Positions 6,255-24,459 of a DNA stretch of 64,000 nt are shown in pieces. The DNA comes from Escherichia coli (GTDB taxonomy: Bacteria > Pseudomonadota > Gammaproteobacteria > Enterobacterales > Enterobacteriaceae). The translations under genes and the position numbers were made by a program. The stretch is taken from NCBI RefSeq assembly GCF_041886205.1, contig NZ_CP169029.1. The stretch is one strand, 5' to 3'. The notes below the pieces were generated by a model. It was not told where the DNA came from and searched no databases. It saw only the letters and a program-made list of their open reading frames with translations. The first letter of the stretch is position 1. Each line of letters starts with the position of its first letter.

Positions 6255-7243
6255 TTTACGTCTCTCGCCGATTACTCATCACCTGTTTGCTGCTGATTTC
6301 CGCCTGTGTGGTTGCAGGTATCTGGGGATTACGCAGCGGTGCCGTCACGCTGGAAACCTCGCAGGTATTCGCCGCGCTGATGGGCGATGCGCCGCGCAGT
6401 ATGACGATGGTGGTCACCGAATGGCGTTTACCACGCGTGCTGATGGCGCTGCTGATTGGCGCGGCGCTGGGCGTCAGCGGCGCGATTTTTCAGTCGCTGA
6501 TGCGTAACCCGCTCGGCAGCCCTGACGTAATGGGCTTTAACACCGGGGCGTGGAGCGGCGTGCTGGTGGCGATGGTGCTGTTTGGTCAGGATCTGACGGC
6601 TATCGCGCTGGCAGCAATGGCGGGCGGCATTGTCACCTCGCTGTTGGTCTGGCTGCTCGCCTGGCGTAACGGCATCGACACCTTTCGGTTGATTATTATC
6701 GGCATCGGCGTTCGCGCCATGCTGGTGGCCTTTAATACCTGGCTGTTGCTGAAAGCGTCTTTAGAAACGGCGCTAACAGCGGGTTTGTGGAATGCCGGAT
6801 CGCTCAACGGCCTGACGTGGGCAAAAACCTCGCCTTCCGCACCCATCATTATATTGATGCTCATTGCCGCCGCCTTGCTGGTACGCCGGATGCGCTTGCT
6901 GGAAATGGGCGATGATACCGCGTGTGCGCTGGGCGTCAGCGTCGAACGTTCGCGTCTGTTAATGATGCTGGTTGCAGTGGTGCTTACCGCTGCGGCAACA
7001 GCGCTTGCCGGGCCGATTTCCTTTATTGCTTTAGTCGCGCCGCACATTGCCCGACGCATTAGCGGCACCGCTCGCTGGGGGCTGACCCAGGCGGCGCTGT
7101 GCGGGGCGCTGTTACTGCTGGCGGCCGATCTCTGCGCCCAACAACTGTTTATGCCGTATCAACTTCCGGTTGGCGTCGTTACCGTCAGCCTCGGCGGTAT
7201 TTACCTTATCGTCTTGTTAATTCAGGAGTCTCGCAAAAAATGA
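6251..7243 (+). CDS. fepG: ferric enterobactin ABC permease FepG
   Basis: 330 aa ORF MIYVSRRLLITCLLLISACVVAG; start overlaps the fepD stop. Confidence 0.92.
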   Translation: MIYVSRRLLITCLLLISACVVAGIWGLRSGAVTLETSQVFAALMGDAPRSMTMVVTEWRLPRVLMALLIGAALGVSGAIFQSLMRNPLGSPDVMGFNTGAWSGVLVAMVLFGQDLTAIALAAMAGGIVTSLLVWLLAWRNGIDTFRLIIIGIGVRAMLVAFNTWLLLKASLETALTAGLWNAGSLNGLTWAKTSPSAPIIILMLIAAALLVRRMRLLEMGDDTACALGVSVERSRLLMMLVAVVLTAAATALAGPISFIALVAPHIARRISGTARWGLTQAALCGALLLLAADLCAQQLFMPYQLPVGVVTVSLGGIYLIVLLIQESRKK

Positions 7244-17184: not shown

Positions 17185-17223
17185 TGCTAACGTCAGATTG
17201 TTGACAAAGTGCGCGTCGTTCAT

Positions 17224-17323
17224 GCCGGATGCGGCGTGAACGCCTTATCAGGCCTACAAAAATCTTGTCAATTCAATATATTGCAGGATCACGTAGGCCT
17301 GATAAGCGTAGCGCATCAGGCAG
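17224..17323. repeat. REP/BIME element (two inverted REP units) between fepA and entD
   Basis: gccggatgcggcgtgaacgccttatcaggcctac and the inverted partner gtaggcctgataagcgtagcgcatcaggca. Confidence 0.85.
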
Positions 17324-17358: not shown

Positions 17359-17979
17359 ATGAAAACTACGCATACCACCCTCCCCTTTGCCGGAAATACG
17401 CTGCATTTTGTTGAGTTCGATCCGGCGAGTTTTTGTGAGCAGGATTTACTCTGGCTGCCACACTACGCGCAACTGCAACACGCTGGACGGAAGCGCAAAG
17501 CCGAACATTTAGCCGGACGAGTCGCCGCCGTTCATGCTTTACGAGAGTATGGTTTGAAAGGCACACCTGCAATTGGTCGTCATCGCCAGCCTGTCTGGCC
17601 TGCGGAGGTATACGGCAGTATTAGCCACTGCGGGGCTACGGCATTGGCCGTGGTATCCCGTCAACCGATTGGTATTGATATCGAAGAAATTTTTTCTGCG
17701 CAAACAGCGACCGAATTGACAGACAACATTATTACACCAGCAGAACACGAGCGACTCGCAGACTGCGGTTTAGCCTTTTCTCTGGCGCTGACACTGGCAT
17801 TTTCCGCCAAAGAGAGCGCATTTAAGGCAAGTGAGATCCAAACTGATGCAGGTTTTCTGGACTATCAGATAATTAGCTGGAATAAACAGCAGGTCATCAT
17901 TCATCGTGAGAATGAGATATTTGCTGTGCACTGGCAGATAAAAGAGAAAATAGTCATAACTCTGTGCCAACACGATTAA
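17359..17979 (+). CDS. entD: phosphopantetheinyl transferase EntD
   Basis: MKTTHTTLPFAGNTLHFVEFDP...; 206 aa from the ATG at 17359 (alternative ATG at 17350 gives MVDMKTT); the 256 aa track ORF is an extension across the REP element. Confidence 0.85.
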   Translation: MKTTHTTLPFAGNTLHFVEFDPASFCEQDLLWLPHYAQLQHAGRKRKAEHLAGRVAAVHALREYGLKGTPAIGRHRQPVWPAEVYGSISHCGATALAVVSRQPIGIDIEEIFSAQTATELTDNIITPAEHERLADCGLAFSLALTLAFSAKESAFKASEIQTDAGFLDYQIISWNKQQVIIHRENEIFAVHWQIKEKIVITLCQHD

Positions 17980-18089
17980 TTGACCACATCTGGTACGATT
18001 CGCCCGCAGCCATCACTGACCGCGGGCGAAAGTGTAAAGCAGGTGCCTTACCACCCTGACCTGACAACCGGATATGCGGGGATTACTCC

Positions 18090-19428
18090 CATAAGCGCTA
18101 ACTTAAGGGTTGAACCATCTGAAGAATGCGACGCCTCGGTGCCTCGTTAAGACGATGCCTCGCGTTCTTCAATTGCGTTTTGTAGGCTGTCAGGGATACT
18201 GTCCCACGAATGGCCACCTGTAAGCTCCAGATGACCATTTTTGTTATTCTCCACAACGAGTTAGTTCTTCTTTTCGGATCCGGCACTTCTGGGGGGGAAA
18301 TCCAGCGATGGCTGGATTATGTCGTCAATTAAAAATGCGGCGAGTAGATTAGCAAATATCCACGCTTTCGCGAGTTCAGGTTCCTTTGCACGCAAAGCAT
18401 CCAGGTGCAGCAAACTTTTGAGCCGCTTAAAAGCCAGTTCAATTTGCCATCGCAGACGGTAACAATCAGCCACTTGCTCTGCTGAATATTCATCTTCCGG
18501 TAATGATGTTAGCAATAGCACATGGCCCGCTGCTTCCAGCGTTTCCGCCTGAACTACTCGTCCTTTTCGACGATTCTCGCTGAGCAGTCGGGTTTTACTG
18601 ATTAATGCTTTTTCGGGAGGAAGTGATACGGCAATGAGACGTGCCGGAAAGGGAGCTCCGGCTTTTTTATTACCTGAATTGCCTATCATTACAGTGGTTT
18701 CACCGTTCTTACCGCAATCCAGCCCGCGCAGAAAACCCATCATGTCAAAGCGCATTCCTTCTGCAGTTAACCAGCGCAATCCTCGCCAGTGAACCCGGAC
18801 GATATAATCAGCTTCTCCAAAAGCAAGTGAGCGGATACATTCGGGACGCGAACCGAATCCCCGGTCAGCAATGCGTATCTCGTCTGCCGTTTGCGCAAAT
18901 CGGTCCAGCCGTTCAGCGTCTCTGCTGTCGGTTAGCTCAAAATCAGTGAACTGACAGGTATGAGGATCATATCCCATATGTAGTCGCCATTCAGCGCTGC
19001 CGCCCCCGGGCGCACTGATTGCTGTTCCATCGACAAGACGCAATCTCTTTCCGCTTGTACAACCCGTAACTGCGGCGCGTACAGCAAGTGTTTGTGCGGC
19101 AAGTATGCCAAACCAGTCGGCGGCATTCCGCAGCCGCTTCAGGAGAGCCACGTCAGATAATGTTGCAACGTCATGGAGCTGAGCCCATGCAGTGACTTCA
19201 CGTAATGACATCCCCCCGGGGCCGTAAGCCAGCCCCAGACGTAGCAGAGTTGCAGCATCACGAATTTCGCGGCGGCGGGTTAGAGCCCCGGCATTACGTG
19301 CCGAAGTATCCAGTTCTTCGGGCTTACCAATATGGGCCAGAATTGCTGACCAGTTATCGTGAGAGTAATTCATCGGCACGTTAAATCATATCAGGCGTAA
19401 TACCACAACCCTTAAGTTAGCGCTTATG
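18090..19428 (-). mobile_element. IS186 (IS4 family), copy 1, complete; transposase on the minus strand
   Basis: Terminal inverted repeats cataagcgctaacttaagggttg (18090-18112) and caacccttaagttagcgcttatg (19406-19428); flanked by direct repeats ggattactcc (18080-18089 and 19429-19438); boundaries accurate to about 1 bp. Confidence 0.92.
18261..19373 (-). CDS. insL: IS186 transposase
   Basis: ORF MNYSHDNWSAILAHIGKPEELDTSARNAG...; 370 aa from the internal Met, the track ORF starts two codons earlier at 19379. Confidence 0.93.
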   Translation of the reverse strand: MNYSHDNWSAILAHIGKPEELDTSARNAGALTRRREIRDAATLLRLGLAYGPGGMSLREVTAWAQLHDVATLSDVALLKRLRNAADWFGILAAQTLAVRAAVTGCTSGKRLRLVDGTAISAPGGGSAEWRLHMGYDPHTCQFTDFELTDSRDAERLDRFAQTADEIRIADRGFGSRPECIRSLAFGEADYIVRVHWRGLRWLTAEGMRFDMMGFLRGLDCGKNGETTVMIGNSGNKKAGAPFPARLIAVSLPPEKALISKTRLLSENRRKGRVVQAETLEAAGHVLLLTSLPEDEYSAEQVADCYRLRWQIELAFKRLKSLLHLDALRAKEPELAKAWIFANLLAAFLIDDIIQPSLDFPPRSAGSEKKN

Positions 19429-19850
19429 GGATTACTCCCCGCACAGCGGCTACTTCTTCGGTTCGTAAGCGAGAACAGCCTTAAACTCAATATTACGTTC
19501 CTTTACCGTAAACTCACACAACGAGTCTCCGACCAGAAGCGTAAATCCCAGCACCGTCAAACACAGCACTATGACTGCCACAAGGGCATATTTCGTCAGC
19601 ATGTTTATATTGCCTCCATGCGAAGAAGGGACTACCATCCGAGTTGTTGAGGTTCGGAGTGGCAGCCCCAGGATTGATAGAAATTTCTCCTGGGGCTTCA
19701 TCTTTCCAGACCTCAGAGTTAACCTGAAACCGGAAAGCTTCAGGCACCCGCCGTTATCTTACCCTTCCTTAGCAAAATAGCTGTTTATTTATACAGTGAG
19801 TCCTGTTTCGGACTTCTGTCAGCAAAACTCATCATTGCTCTTAAAACGAA
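19429..19850 (-). other. hok/sok-type type I toxin-antitoxin module, copy A (hokE coding region plus upstream mok/sok leader); its 3' UTR is separated by IS186 copy 1
   Basis: Contains the hokE ORF with GGAGG Shine-Dalgarno, an in-frame upstream ORF (19450-19701) and an overlapping out-of-frame ORF (19514-19747) as mok candidates; the 3' hairpin segment now lies at 18000-18089. Confidence 0.7.
19450..19602 (-). CDS. hokE: Hok-family membrane toxin HokE, copy A
   Basis: 50 aa [50 protein letters not shown]; single transmembrane helix typical of Hok/Gef; stop codon 21 bp from the IS186 end. Confidence 0.9.
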
Positions 19851-19941
19851 ATCGCCCGCAGCCATCACTGACCGCGGGCGAAAGTGTAAAGCAGGTGCCT
19901 TACCATCCTGACCTGACAACCGGATATGCGGGGATTGCTCC

Positions 19942-21280
19942 CATAAGCGCTAACTTAAGGGTTGTGGTATTACGCCTGATATGATTTAACGTGCCGATGA
20001 ATTACTCTCACGATAACTGGTCAGCAATTCTGGCCCATATTGGTAAGCCCGAAGAACTGGATACTTCGGCACGTAATGCCGGGGCTCTAACCCGCCGCCG
20101 CGAAATTCGTGATGCTGCAACTCTGCTACGTCTGGGGCTGGCTTACGGCCCCGGGGGGATGTCATTACGTGAAGTCACTGCATGGGCTCAGCTCCATGAC
20201 GTTGCAACATTATCTGACGTGGCTCTCCTGAAGCGGCTGCGGAATGCCGCCGACTGGTTTGGCATACTTGCCGCACAAACACTTGCTGTACGCGCCGCAG
20301 TTACGGGTTGTACAAGCGGAAAGAGATTGCGTCTTGTCGATGGAACAGCAATCAGTGCGCCCGGGGGCGGCAGCGCTGAATGGCGACTACATATGGGATA
20401 TGATCCTCATACCTGTCAGTTCACTGATTTTGAGCTAACCGACAGCAGAGACGCTGAACGGCTGGACCGATTTGCGCAAACGGCAGACGAGATACGCATT
20501 GCTGACCGGGGATTCGGTTCGCGTCCCGAATGTATCCGCTCACTTGCTTTTGGAGAAGCTGATTATATCGTCCGGGTTCACTGGCGAGGATTGCGCTGGT
20601 TAACTGCAGAAGGAATGCGCTTTGACATGATGGGTTTTCTGCGCGGGCTGGATTGCGGTAAGAACGGTGAAACCACTGTAATGATAGGCAATTCAGGTAA
20701 TAAAAAAGCCGGAGCTCCCTTTCCGGCACGTCTCATTGCCGTATCACTTCCTCCCGAAAAAGCATTAATCAGTAAAACCCGACTGCTCAGCGAGAATCGT
20801 CGAAAAGGACGAGTAGTTCAGGCGGAAACGCTGGAAGCAGCGGGCCATGTGCTATTGCTAACATCATTACCGGAAGATGAATATTCAGCAGAGCAAGTGG
20901 CTGATTGTTACCGTCTGCGATGGCAAATTGAACTGGCTTTTAAGCGGCTCAAAAGTTTGCTGCACCTGGATGCTTTGCGTGCAAAGGAACCTGAACTCGC
21001 GAAAGCGTGGATATTTGCTAATCTACTCGCCGCATTTTTAATTGACGACATAATCCAGCCATCGCTGGATTTCCCCCCCAGAAGTGCCGGATCCGAAAAG
21101 AAGAACTAACTCGTTGTGGAGAATAACAAAAATGGTCATCTGGAGCTTACAGGTGGCCATTCGTGGGACAGTATCCCTGACAGCCTACAAAACGCAATTG
21201 AAGAACGCGAGGCATCGTCTTAACGAGGCACCGAGGCGTCGCATTCTTCAGATGGTTCAACCCTTAAGTTAGCGCTTATG
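19942..21280 (+). mobile_element. IS186, copy 2, complete; inverted relative to copy 1
   Basis: Same 23 bp terminal inverted repeats at 19942-19964 and 21258-21280; flanked by direct repeats ggattgctcc (19932-19941 and 21281-21290); transposase protein identical to copy 1. Confidence 0.92.
19997..21109 (+). CDS. insL: IS186 transposase
   Basis: 370 aa, identical in protein sequence to the copy-1 transposase. Confidence 0.93.
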   Translation: MNYSHDNWSAILAHIGKPEELDTSARNAGALTRRREIRDAATLLRLGLAYGPGGMSLREVTAWAQLHDVATLSDVALLKRLRNAADWFGILAAQTLAVRAAVTGCTSGKRLRLVDGTAISAPGGGSAEWRLHMGYDPHTCQFTDFELTDSRDAERLDRFAQTADEIRIADRGFGSRPECIRSLAFGEADYIVRVHWRGLRWLTAEGMRFDMMGFLRGLDCGKNGETTVMIGNSGNKKAGAPFPARLIAVSLPPEKALISKTRLLSENRRKGRVVQAETLEAAGHVLLLTSLPEDEYSAEQVADCYRLRWQIELAFKRLKSLLHLDALRAKEPELAKAWIFANLLAAFLIDDIIQPSLDFPPRSAGSEKKN

Positions 21281-21301
21281 GGATTGCTCCCCGCACAACG
21301 G

Positions 21302-21454
21302 CTACTTCTTCGGTTCGTAAGCGAGAACAGCCTTAAACTCAATATTACGTTCCTTCACCGTAAACTCACACAGCGAGTCGCCGACCAGAAGCGTAAATCC
21401 CAGCACCGTTAAACACAGTACTATGACTGCCGCAAGGGCATATTTCGTCAGCAT
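21302..21454 (-). CDS. hokE: Hok-family toxin HokE, copy B (V8A variant)
   Basis: [50 protein letters not shown]; 6 nucleotide differences from copy A, one non-synonymous; IS186 copy 2 lies 21 bp after the stop and IS150 71 bp before the ATG. Confidence 0.88.
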
Positions 21455-21551
21455 GTTTATATTGCCTCCATGCGAAGAAGGGACTACCATCCAAATTGTT
21501 CAGGTTTGGGTAGGTAGCCCTAGGGTGTACTGACCCCAAAAAGTTGGACAG

Positions 21552-22403
21552 TTAAACACGAGGCATATAGGTCTGATTCCGATATTCAATTGGAGTCAGA
21601 CCTTTTAATTTCAGGCTAATTCTTCTGCTGTTGTAGTATTCAATATATTCCGTAACAGCATCCTTCAGTTCGCTTATATTACTGAACTCATCAAGATAAA
21701 AACACTCCGACTTTAAGGTTCCAAAGAAACACTCCACCACAGCATTATCCAGACAATTGCCTTTTCTGGACATGCTTTGTTTAATACCATGTTCTTTAAG
21801 GATATTTTGATATCTTCTCATACGATACTGCCATCCCTGGTCAGAGTGCAGAACAGGATGCTCGTGAGGATTAAGCTTTTTGAATGCCTGATCGAGCATA
21901 TTCTCAACCATGTTCATCACTGGTCTTTCCGAAAGGCTGTAAGAAATAACTTCATTGTTGAAGAGATCTATTACTGGAGACAAATACAGCTTGCGCCCAT
22001 TGACTGCAAATTCAGTAACATCGGTAACCCACTTCTCGTTTGGCCGCGTAGCCTTGAAATCTCTTTGGAGAACATTGGGGGCGGTTTGCCCTACCTCTCT
22101 TCTGTAAGAGCGGTATCGCTTGACCTTAATCGCTGCCTTAAGTGAGAGGGTTCCCATCAGGCGCTGAACAGCTTTATGGTTAATCTGTTTCCCTTCTCGA
22201 TGAAGAGACAGCGTTACCCTACGGTATCCGTATCGGCCTCTATTCTCATGATAAATCTCACCAATACGCTTTTTAACGCCCGCATACTTGTCAGGCTTGC
22301 TGAGAGCCTTTAGATGGTAATAAAACGTACTGCGCGGTATCTCCGCAGCCCTGAGAAGCTCATCAAGAGGATAAAACTGCCTTAGCTCGTTGAGTACTTT
22401 CAC
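21552..22403 (-). CDS. insK: IS150 OrfB (transposase catalytic part, DDE)
   Basis: 283 aa [32 protein letters not shown]... Confidence 0.92.
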
Positions 22404-22921
22404 TTTTTCGTGGGATGAGCTAAGGCTTTCAGCTTTTTTAGATACACAAGCCGCGTTTCAAGAAATCGAACTTGCCTTTCAAGATCCTCAATGCGTCGGT
22501 CTTTTGACAGCTCCAATGCTGATGCCGCTTTTTCTGGATCAACTGATATTGCAATGTTTCTTTTGGTGCCAATCTTGAGCGCGCGTAAACCAGCTTCTCC
22601 GCGATCTTCATAAACCTTCAGCCACCTGGCTACAGAACCACTACCAGCAAGCATAAAGTGAGCAGCAGCCTGATTAAGGGACATGTGCTGCTCGATCACA
22701 GCTTTCACGACCTTAATACGCAACTCTGGATCAGCACTAACGCCTTTAGGTTTGGGAATTAAACCTTTTTCTCCATGTTTTTCATAGAGGGCAACCCATG
22801 TCCTGACCTGGGTTCGGGGGACACCAAAACGTGCCGAGATGATCCTGTAACCATCATCAGTTGTGAAGTAGTGATTCACGACTTCAAGGCGCTTTTCAAA
22901 AGGGTATTTTGGCTTTGACAT
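22400..22921 (-). CDS. insJ: IS150 OrfA (helix-turn-helix DNA-binding part)
   Basis: 173 aa MSKPKYPFEKRLEVVNHYFTTDDGYRIISARFGVPRTQVRTW. Confidence 0.92.
   Translation of the reverse strand: MSKPKYPFEKRLEVVNHYFTTDDGYRIISARFGVPRTQVRTWVALYEKHGEKGLIPKPKGVSADPELRIKVVKAVIEQHMSLNQAAAHFMLAGSGSVARWLKVYEDRGEAGLRALKIGTKRNIAISVDPEKAASALELSKDRRIEDLERQVRFLETRLVYLKKLKALAHPTKK
22433..22439 (-). other. IS150 programmed -1 ribosomal frameshift heptamer A-AAA-AAG
   Basis: Minus-strand AAAAAAG lies in the orfA zero frame as CTA-AAA-AAG, 33 nt upstream of the orfA stop, where the orfB frame overlaps. Confidence 0.75.
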
Positions 22922-23331
22922 ATTAGGGGCTATTCCATTTCATCGTCCAACAAAATGGGTGCAGTACAGGGTTGATAGAAATATCTCCTGGGGCTTCATC
23001 TTTCCAGACCTCAGAGTAAACCTGAAACCGGAAAGCTTCAGGCACCCGCCGTTATCTTACCCTTCCTCAACAAAATAGCTGTTTATTTATACAGTAAATC
23101 CTGTTTCGGACTTCTCACTCCTCATTTAATCAACTGAAGCTGAACCCGTTTTTTCTGCATGCCTCAATCGTCAAAATTCTTCGCCGCCAGCCAGCTAAGA
23201 CGCAACTGGTCACATTGCAAAAGTAGCCAAATTACTTCAGTCACCATCACCAAAAAAAAGAAACATTCCAGAACTTCCGCATCTCGCCCAGCCGCTCCCA
23301 CTTCTATACTGAATGGAAAACGCCAACATAA

Positions 23332-24459
<1,128 letters not shown>

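Follow-up and report, generated by a model that had tools for sequence, protein, structure and literature searches.

The window, a 64,000-nt stretch of Escherichia coli DNA, carries between entD (17359..17979, + strand), which codes for an enterobactin synthase subunit and forms the left border, and ybdK (23341..24459, + strand), which forms the right border, two minus-strand type I toxin-antitoxin modules of the hokE/sokE type, as confirmed to the base. The entD ORF ends at 17979, with the orthologous 621-nt CDS being annotated in three compared loci; ybdK is likewise defined by its ORF and by orthologues annotated in the compared genomes. The hokE tandem holds two identical, mutually inverted copies of IS186 and one IS150, each with its own target-site duplication. 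A repeat search returned three families of direct repeats, i.e., the 3' segments (18000-18112 vs. 19852-19964, 98% identical), 19406-19672 vs. 21258-21524 (94%) and 19669-19817 vs. 22967-23115 (95%), as well as a perfect inverted repeat of 1369 nt constituted by the two IS186 copies. These direct-repeat families, together with the IS borders, bear out the sequence-only reading of the region as two complete, diverged tandem modules. The IS borders proposed there match as well; the leader homology, however, ends at 19817 and 23115 rather than at 19850 and 23130, and the share of insertion sequence, put at about 4.2 kb of 5.1 kb, is corrected to 4,121 bp of 5,131 bp.

Starting from its 3' end, module A comprises a 3' segment (18000..18089), which belongs to the 98% repeat family shared with module B and is split from the ORF by IS186 #1 (18090..19428, minus strand), the intact 50-aa hokE-A toxin ORF (19450..19602), an intact leader/sok region (19594..19749), defined by a full-model match to Rfam RF01794, and the hok promoter region (19750..19817), recognised by alignment with module B and K-12. 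Folding of the IS-free reconstruction placed its terminal hairpin at 18000-18029 and the fold-back-inhibition element at approximately 18038-18048. A 34-nt inter-module spacer (19818..19851), containing the T-run TTTCGTTTT of the module B terminator, leads over to the 3' segment of module B (19852..19941), which was assigned by its repeat family and a terminator-like site and contains the terminator hairpin (19852-19881) and the fold-back-inhibition element. This segment is split from the intact 50-aa hokE-B toxin ORF (21302..21454) by IS186 #2 (19942..21280, + strand). Upstream of hokE-B lies IS150 (21526..22968, minus strand), followed by what is left of the module B promoter and 5' leader (22969..23115), as delimited by its repeat family and alignment; this remnant, which contains the mok start, now runs into IS150 at the left end of the element. 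All module segments, including the spacer, are oriented on the minus strand.

IS186 (= IS421, IS4 family) #1 is 100% identical to K-12 IS186B over 1339 bp, has terminal inverted repeats of 23 bp, and encodes a single DDE transposase (133 bits with the NCBIfam IS4 model vs. a cutoff of 115) from an ORF at 18261-19379 on the minus strand, that is, in the direction of hokE. IS186 #2 is 100% identical to IS186 #1, although the host modules differ by about 5%, and has its transposase ORF at 19991-21109 on the + strand. IS186 #1 is bordered by the 10-bp target-site duplication GGATTACTCC (18080-18089 and 19429-19438) and IS186 #2 by GGATTGCTCC (19932-19941 and 21281-21290). Both duplications lie within GCGGGG...CCCCGC, and in each module the element entered about 19-20 nt past the hokE stop codon, in a GGGG-N6-CCCC hairpin, which in folds of the IS-free mRNAs is situated between the hokE stop codon and the fold-back element. 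SaiSree and co-workers reportedly described a target consensus for IS186 in 2001. IS150 (IS3 family; 99.2% identical to K-12 IS150 over 1443 bp, 347 bits with the NCBIfam IS3 model for its transposase) comprises two overlapping ORFs in a frameshift arrangement, orfA (22400-22921, 173 aa) and orfB (21552-22403, 283 aa), on the minus strand, is bordered by the 3-bp duplication GGG, and has inserted into the sok/mok region at a distance of 71 nt upstream from the ATG of hokE-B.

An intact hok cassette yields a hok mRNA of about 400 nt. In the hok family, the 5' end of this mRNA is paired with a 3' element (fold-back inhibition), rendering it untranslatable until 3' trimming, and initiation of mok/hok translation is blocked by a short antisense RNA, Sok, that is made from inside the leader. 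HokE-A has exactly the sequence of RefSeq WP_000956465.1 ("toxin HokE") and HokE-B that of WP_000956455.1, which is also the HokE of K-12 and REL606; HokE-B differs from HokE-A by V8A, with five synonymous and one non-synonymous difference between the hokE copies. RefSeq annotates both tandem genes as hokE, and the profile of the small (about 50 aa), hydrophobic Hok toxins, Pfam PF01848 (HOK_GEF), is matched with E = 1.1e-7 over model positions 1-42 of 42. Since HokE stays below the curated cutoffs of the NCBIfam HokA model (49 vs. 89 bits) and Hok-family model (40 vs. 73 bits), the assignment relies on Pfam and on the exact RefSeq identity.

The sok element of module A is matched by Rfam RF01794 over its full length (80.2 bits vs. 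a gathering score of 59). That of module B is split by IS150, one match (63.7 bits) running partly into the IS150 and the other half scoring 23.7 bits, so that the element is recovered only in the IS-free reconstruction. Transferred from the position of K-12 sokE (-103 to -44 of the hokE ATG), a putative Sok-A antisense RNA would cover approximately 19646-19705 of the + strand. A mok-like frame is contained in module A as an in-frame 83-aa ORF (19450-19701) whose start precedes that of hokE by 99 nt, while the mok start of module B sits beyond the IS150, away from hokE-B. Based on the fold and the start of the Rfam model, the module A mRNA is inferred to begin near 19752 (GGCGGGUGCC). In minimum-free-energy folds of the IS-free mRNA reconstructions of both modules and of strain EC4115, nt 1-11 pair with nt 356-366, followed by the terminal hairpin; the paired columns are invariant in 27/27 modules and, hence, lend no covariation support to the pairing. 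In the present locus, the fold-back partners are kept apart by IS186.

Comparison of the two modules revealed 25 differing positions, or about 5% divergence overall. These differences cluster in a 44-nt block comprising the first ~28 nt of Sok, which is the target-recognition end, and the start of the promoter. In most of the E. coli strains sampled, this Sok block is 16-23% divergent, as opposed to 2-4% in the remainder of the module, and the Hok proteins of the two copies differ by one or two residues at most. The block occurs as a few discrete haplotypes, two different ones being combined in each of the sampled tandem genomes (11/11).

The tandem is widespread. Using a short 91-nt probe spanning the spacer, on which the tandem count rests, the junction of modules A and B was found in 2,079 out of 5,426 complete E. 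coli genomes (38%). With a 1,215-bp IS-free tandem query, two hokE genes with a one-piece match were seen in about 23 of 60 evenly spaced rows; the "80% coverage" summary of that query was dropped as a tandem count, because it is confounded by single-module genomes, which likewise exceed 80% by aligning in two pieces that are joined. IS-free tandems are present in O157:H7 EC4115, AZ146, GN25 and Ecol_224, and E. whittamii as well as two cryptic, non-K-12-like Escherichia lineages (Escherichia sp. MOD1-EC7003 and SCPM-O-B-8794) have the tandem at the same place, bordered by entD and ybdK. Up to about 1,900 genomes have an IS186 in the hokE hairpin, in either orientation and either module, with the identical nucleotide being hit in strain 405, CB209, K-12 and REL606. 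For IS186 in module B, the figure is at most 168 genomes, an upper bound since some two-piece matches are included (e.g., H139 and H140). IS150 is found at exactly the same site in 500 genomes. The whole 5.5-kb three-IS tandem arrangement, in contrast, exists in only three complete genomes, and none of the complete RefSeq E. coli genomes matches the locus at 100%; closest is MB53 (99.9%), which has the same locus without the IS150, presenting a clean empty site with flanks that are 99.9% identical. Order and orientation are kept in four independent complete genomes (QA-1986 83, ES7, FCI17 and MB53), of which QA-1986 83 has G instead of A in both target-site duplication copies of its module A IS186.

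From these data, the sequence-only reading was right in taking the duplication as not recent, given the frequency of the junction, its occurrence in other Escherichia and the ~5% distance between the copies, and as no assembly repeat, given the 25 differing positions and the recurrence of the architecture in independent complete genomes. Comparison of the locus also confirmed its description of K-12 MG1655 as having one module with one IS186, and its view of the locus as an insertion hotspot holds, with IS186 in both modules and both orientations. Its suggestion that the second module is specific to this strain is refuted by the distribution of the junction, by the IS-free EC4115 and by E. whittamii and two further lineages; nor are the individual insertions strain-specific, as only their full combination is rare.

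According to one alternative explanation, each element inserted a single time long ago and was then passed on by descent and homologous recombination, without any hotspot. Much of the occurrence of the IS150 site and of IS186 in hundreds of genomes is indeed clade descent, and the 0.8% difference between the IS150 of the present locus and that of QA-1986 83 is compatible with some age. We nevertheless regard this explanation as unlikely, considering that IS186 is found in both orientations and in both modules, that the duplication allele of QA-1986 83 differs on both sides of the element, that the empty IS150 site of MB53 is clean at 99.9%, and that also the paralogous hairpin of K-12 hokC has been struck by IS186. 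Taken together, the orientations, the modules, the QA-1986 83 allele, MB53 and hokC call for at least four separate IS186 events. For some of the shared IS positions, recombination spreading one insertion could be responsible instead of repeated insertion.

The other three alternatives fare far worse. A strain-specific, fairly recent duplication of a K-12-type single hokE might be thought of in view of the single modules of K-12 MG1655 and REL606 and of the mere three genomes with the whole 5.5-kb arrangement; it is, however, extremely improbable with the junction present in 38% of the complete genomes, including IS-free lineages, with the tandem at the same chromosomal site in other Escherichia species, and with copies that are 5% apart overall and 16-23% apart in the Sok block. 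Mis-expansion of a repeat around the IS copies during assembly is a known hazard with multicopy elements such as IS186 and IS150, where short-read assemblies often break or mis-join, but there is hardly any room for it here: the modules differ at 25 positions, the target-site duplications match for each IS and differ between the modules, QA-1986 83, ES7, FCI17 and MB53 show the same order and orientation, and MB53 is 99.9% identical across the locus. Finally, the identical inverted IS186 copies flanking a hokE ORF, leader and 3' segment evoke a composite transposon that imported a foreign hokE on the 513-bp segment in between, an idea deserving next to no credence, because the two IS186 copies are each bordered by a perfect 10-bp duplication of their own (A-type on both sides of #1, G-type on both sides of #2), no single duplication is common to the outer ends, the same tandem exists without any IS in EC4115, and the inter-IS segment is colinear with that tandem in a BLAST comparison.

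Thus, the region is in all likelihood the chromosomal hokE/sokE locus in its old, Escherichia-wide two-module form, which was broken by later, independent IS transpositions and is now probably inert. The tandem itself is old, common and already described, and only this particular combination of insertions is rare. Given the frequency of the junction, the IS-free EC4115 locus and its occurrence in E. whittamii and two further lineages, the tandem is most likely ancestral and the single module of K-12 derived; with the tandem being common and the older form, the K-12 reference is misleading at this site. IS186 entered the preferred GGGG-N6-CCCC hairpin of each cassette, severing the ORF from the fold-back element and the terminator, and IS150 entered the sok/mok region of module B, severing the ORF from its promoter and splitting sok. 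These insertions postdate the duplication and are independent of each other. The present locus is one step away from MB53, and it is the parent form from which the one-module arrangement of VE-T9 with IS186 and IS150 arose as a deletion product.

Concerning function, the two modules have probably become inert relics comparable to the hok loci of K-12, a notion that is drawn from work on K-12 (Pedersen and Gerdes 1999, as reported in PMC7232551). In module A, the promoter, sok and ORF are all preserved, and the module could still be expressed, its 3' end then being supplied by IS186. For hokE-B, flanking by IS150 does not necessarily mean silence, since the hokE of REL606, with IS150 upstream, has been reported to be highly expressed (PMC3446290).

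The locus is of an ordinary, already known kind and leaves the current understanding of hok/sok unchanged. It does illustrate clearly how, in nature, toxin cassettes of the chromosome are disabled time and again by insertion sequences at defined sites, with IS186 striking one and the same hairpin in either orientation, in the two copies and also in a paralogue, and with intermediate and derived forms being preserved in sequenced strains (MB53, the present locus and VE-T9). Only the clustering of the differences between the copies in the part of Sok that recognises the target might lead to a new experiment. The haplotype pattern hints, tentatively and with rather more doubt than confidence, at selection on the Sok antisense RNA that keeps the tandem cassettes functionally apart; if so, repression by each Sok would be confined to the cognate hok mRNA, and the tandem would constitute two independent systems instead of a redundant pair.

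Several known loci can be compared with the present one. The hokE/sokE locus of K-12 MG1655 (b4415/b4835) occupies the same site between entD and ybdK, and its HokE protein, which served as a known-toxic positive control in a preprint (bioRxiv 10.1101/2025.08.07.668861), equals HokE-B. Its IS186B shares the nucleotide, the duplication GGATTACTCC and the orientation of the module A IS186; unlike the present tandem, the K-12 locus consists of one module, a mosaic of A-like and B-like sites, and is devoid of IS150. E. coli B REL606 also has one hokE, with an IS186 oriented like that of module A and an IS150 at the same site, but differs in having a single module, an IS150 interrupted by IS1 and a deletion of the adjacent leader. 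The closest counterparts of the tandem are found in AIEC NRG857c and O157:H7 EC4115, which likewise have two hokE genes, lying about 503 bp apart there; the NRG857c pair, hok-2.1/hok-2.2, was listed as a hokE duplication in 2020 (PMC7232551). Both loci are free of insertion sequences, and thus their cassettes are intact, unlike here. On a more general level, the above preprint describes hok "islets", in which about 10% of Hok genes are clustered, 2-6 homologues being spaced by less than 2 kb, and reads them as local duplication; that survey is a general one, whereas the present locus is a specific hokE tandem with IS insertions. Hok/sok loci have been described as hotspots for the insertion of mobile genetic elements (bioRxiv 10.1101/527788), and in K-12, hokA is inactivated by IS150 and hokC and hokE by IS186 (Pedersen and Gerdes 1999, cited via PMC7232551). 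In K-12 hokC, IS186 resides in the homologous hairpin about 19-20 nt past the stop codon, with the toxin ORF remaining intact, as is the case here; in K-12 hokA, IS150 resides in mok/sok, in the opposite orientation and 32 nt from the ATG vs. 71 nt in module B. What sets the present locus apart from these IS-hit hok loci of K-12 is that three such insertions are stacked in a single tandem locus.

The interval between entD, which ends at 17979 (+) and forms the left border of the hokE locus, and ybdK, which starts at 23341 (+) and forms its right border, consists of one unit of ~0.5 kb that is present twice on the minus strand (modules A and B). A repeat search returned three direct repeat families, namely 18000–18112 versus 19852–19964 (98% identity), 19406–19672 versus 21258–21524 (94%) and 19669–19817 versus 22967–23115 (95%), which bear out the sequence-only reading of two diverged copies with segments ~93–98% identical, as well as a perfect inverted repeat of 1369 nt. 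Exact borders of the insertion sequences were obtained from their terminal inverted repeats and from blast comparison with the elements. IS186 #1 in module A (18090–19428) has its transposase on the hokE strand and is flanked by the target-site duplication GGATTACTCC; in module B, IS186 #2 (19942–21280; duplication GGATTGCTCC) is inverted relative to IS186 #1, and IS150 (21526–22968; duplication GGG) has its ORFs on the hokE strand. The two copies of IS186 share 100% identity with one another as well as with IS186B of K-12; between IS150 and its K-12 counterpart, identity is 99.2%. The previously proposed segment coordinates were correct apart from the leader ends, since homology between the modules ends at 19817 and 23115, with a 34-nt spacer (19818–19851) that carries the T-run of the module B terminator. 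The anatomy of the tandem is fully resolved, and the earlier observation was accurate. In the neighbouring fepA–entD spacer (17213–17300), an Rfam match to ES036/CssrF lies barely above the gathering score (39.8 versus 37.6 bits), and the opposite strand gives a weak REP-like match to naRNA4.

Both toxin ORFs are intact and comprise 50 codons on the minus strand. The product of hokE-A (19450–19602) is identical to RefSeq WP_000956465.1, and that of hokE-B (21302–21454) to WP_000956455.1, the HokE of K-12 and REL606; between the two genes there are five synonymous changes and a single conservative one, V8A. The Pfam HOK_GEF model is matched over its full length, and all matches of the NCBIfam Hok models are below the curated cutoffs. 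In module A the match to the Rfam sok model is complete (80.2 bits versus a gathering score of 59); in module B it is split by IS150. An 83-aa in-frame ORF upstream of hokE-A occupies the position of mok, the overlapping upstream frame. When the insertion sequences and one copy of each duplication were taken out, the resulting 404-nt mRNAs were predicted to fold with their 5′ 11 nt paired to nt 356–366, followed by a terminal hairpin. Such 5′–3′ fold-back pairing is the typical arrangement of hok mRNAs, and the IS-free O157:H7 modules are predicted to adopt it as well; as the paired columns are invariant among strains, it is the folding energy that argues for this pairing. With the T-run TTTCGTTTT behind it, the terminal hairpin of module B (19852–19881) is scored as an intrinsic terminator; the identical hairpin of module A (18000–18029) is followed by ATCGTACC and passes directly into the end of entD. 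Antisense to the hok leader, overlapping the sok/mok region, RefSeq annotates a “hypothetical protein” ORF in many genomes, frequently with a frameshift flag (window 19571–19780 (+) and 22959–23078 (+); 6521–6739 in the comparison locus L001), which is probably not a real gene.

In each module, the target of IS186 is the hairpin GCGGGGAGUAAUCCCCGC, ~20 nt past the hokE stop codon, and the element separates the ORF from the fold-back element and terminator. The insertion site of IS150 precedes the ATG of hokE-B by 71 nt, a position that homology with the K-12 sokE annotation places inside sok, and the element cuts the ORF from promoter, 5′ leader and mok start. Based on these positions, module A retains promoter, sok and ORF without the 3′ control region, and module B lacks both ends. 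By analogy with the K-12 hok loci, as far as these are reported in the citation of Pedersen and Gerdes 1999 in PMC7232551, both modules would be inert. A caveat is REL606, in which hokE is reported to be highly expressed (PMC3446290), although IS150 is located upstream in the same orientation as in the window. The orphaned hok promoter of module B (22969–23115) points into IS150 in the direction of the transposase genes, and IS150 itself points into hokE-B; read-through in either case is possible.

Among 5,426 complete E. coli genomes, the junction of modules A and B was found in 2,079, using a 91-nt probe and an E-value chosen to make half-matches fail. IS186 beside the entD-proximal module is present in ~1,877 genomes, mostly in the window orientation and in some in the opposite one, IS186 in module B in the window orientation in at most 168, IS150 at the exact window junction in 500, and the whole 5.5-kb arrangement in three (QA-1986 83, ES7 and FCI17; ~98.9% identity). 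Direct inspection of O157:H7 EC4115, Ecol_AZ146, GN25 and Ecol_224 showed two hokE annotations at a distance of 503 bp in each, and no insertion sequences. A scan with a degenerate hokE pattern, covering one genome per bacterial species, showed that E. whittamii and the divergent “E. coli” SCPM-O-B-8794 carry the tandem in its entD–ybdK position; in Escherichia sp. MOD1-EC7003 it is next to ybdK, and entD was not found on the same contig. Klebsiella spallanzanii has two hokE-like modules (1683–2053 and 2205–2572 of its locus), 522 bp apart and 76–78% identical to the E. coli module, which neither entD nor ybdK adjoins. The second module had been taken for strain-specific, which these occurrences contradict; given its presence in IS-free strains and other Escherichia, the tandem is old, and the single K-12 module is most likely derived. 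In Ecol_AZ146, two SDR oxidoreductase genes and an ABC transporter permease gene (437–2052 of its locus), not entD, lie left of the tandem, and the entD-side probe breaks in this way in ~600 records.

The observed states need at least four separate IS186 events: forward in the entD-proximal module (K-12, REL606, window, MB53), reverse in a single module (CB209), reverse in module B (window, MB53, QA-1986 83) and forward in module B (strain 405). Furthermore, the module A IS186 of QA-1986 83 has G in both duplication copies where the window has A, for which separate insertion into a different allele fits better than two parallel mutations. In K-12, IS186 is found in the homologous hairpin of hokC (duplication GGATCACTCC), and IS150 in the mok/sok region of hokA. 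Taken together, these cases support the suggested insertion hotspot, an idea already in the literature: hok/sok genes have been flagged as hotspots of MGE insertion (bioRxiv 10.1101/527788), and the cases in K-12 have been known since 1999.

Two strains bear on the history of the locus. MB53 is 99.9% identical across it and has both IS186 copies, with the IS150 site empty and clean. VE-T9 corresponds to the window lacking exactly one repeat unit of 1,852 bp and therefore arose by deletion from a window-like tandem; the duplication copies at its one IS186 (477–490 and 1830–1843 of the VE-T9 locus) are unequal, left ATTACTCC and right ATTGCTCC, which is the scar expected of a crossover within the 18000–18112/19852–19964 repeat. 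We infer that the tandem came first, that two IS186 insertions and then IS150 produced the window state, and that deletion to one module followed.

Differences between the modules are concentrated, with 10 of 25 lying within 33 nt (module alignment columns 146–178), where an even spread predicts ~1.75; by hand calculation, the binomial probability of at least 10 is of the order of 3e-6. Nucleotide diversity across 20 modules from 12 strains, with the REL606 module left out, peaks at 0.17 in the same columns. In the window, the divergent block (19646–19680 and 21498–21525/22969–22975; columns 141–184) corresponds, by K-12 annotation, to the first ~28 nt of Sok and the bases directly upstream of its start. 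Across 11 tandem genomes, the A–B distance is 4.5–23% in the block (of the eight E. coli genomes included, seven are at 16–23%) versus 1.6–5.2% elsewhere in the module. The block sequences form a small number of discrete haplotypes, and in none of the 11 genomes sampled does the same haplotype occur twice. Duplex energies predicted for the 5′-terminal 30 nt of Sok are −63 to −67 kcal/mol with the cognate target and −32 to −44 kcal/mol with the non-cognate one. These results fit selection for non-cross-reacting antitoxins, and they fit weak constraint on this stretch of Sok as well; the sample being small and the strains related, selection is a tentative and rather doubtful explanation.

Overall, the hokE tandem occurs commonly and has already been annotated and published, disruption of hok loci by insertion sequences is textbook knowledge, and the only rare feature is the stacking of three insertions. 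K-12 MG1655 has a single module with one IS186, and this IS186B is located at the identical nucleotide, with the duplication and orientation seen in module A. Both the type of locus and its position are already known.
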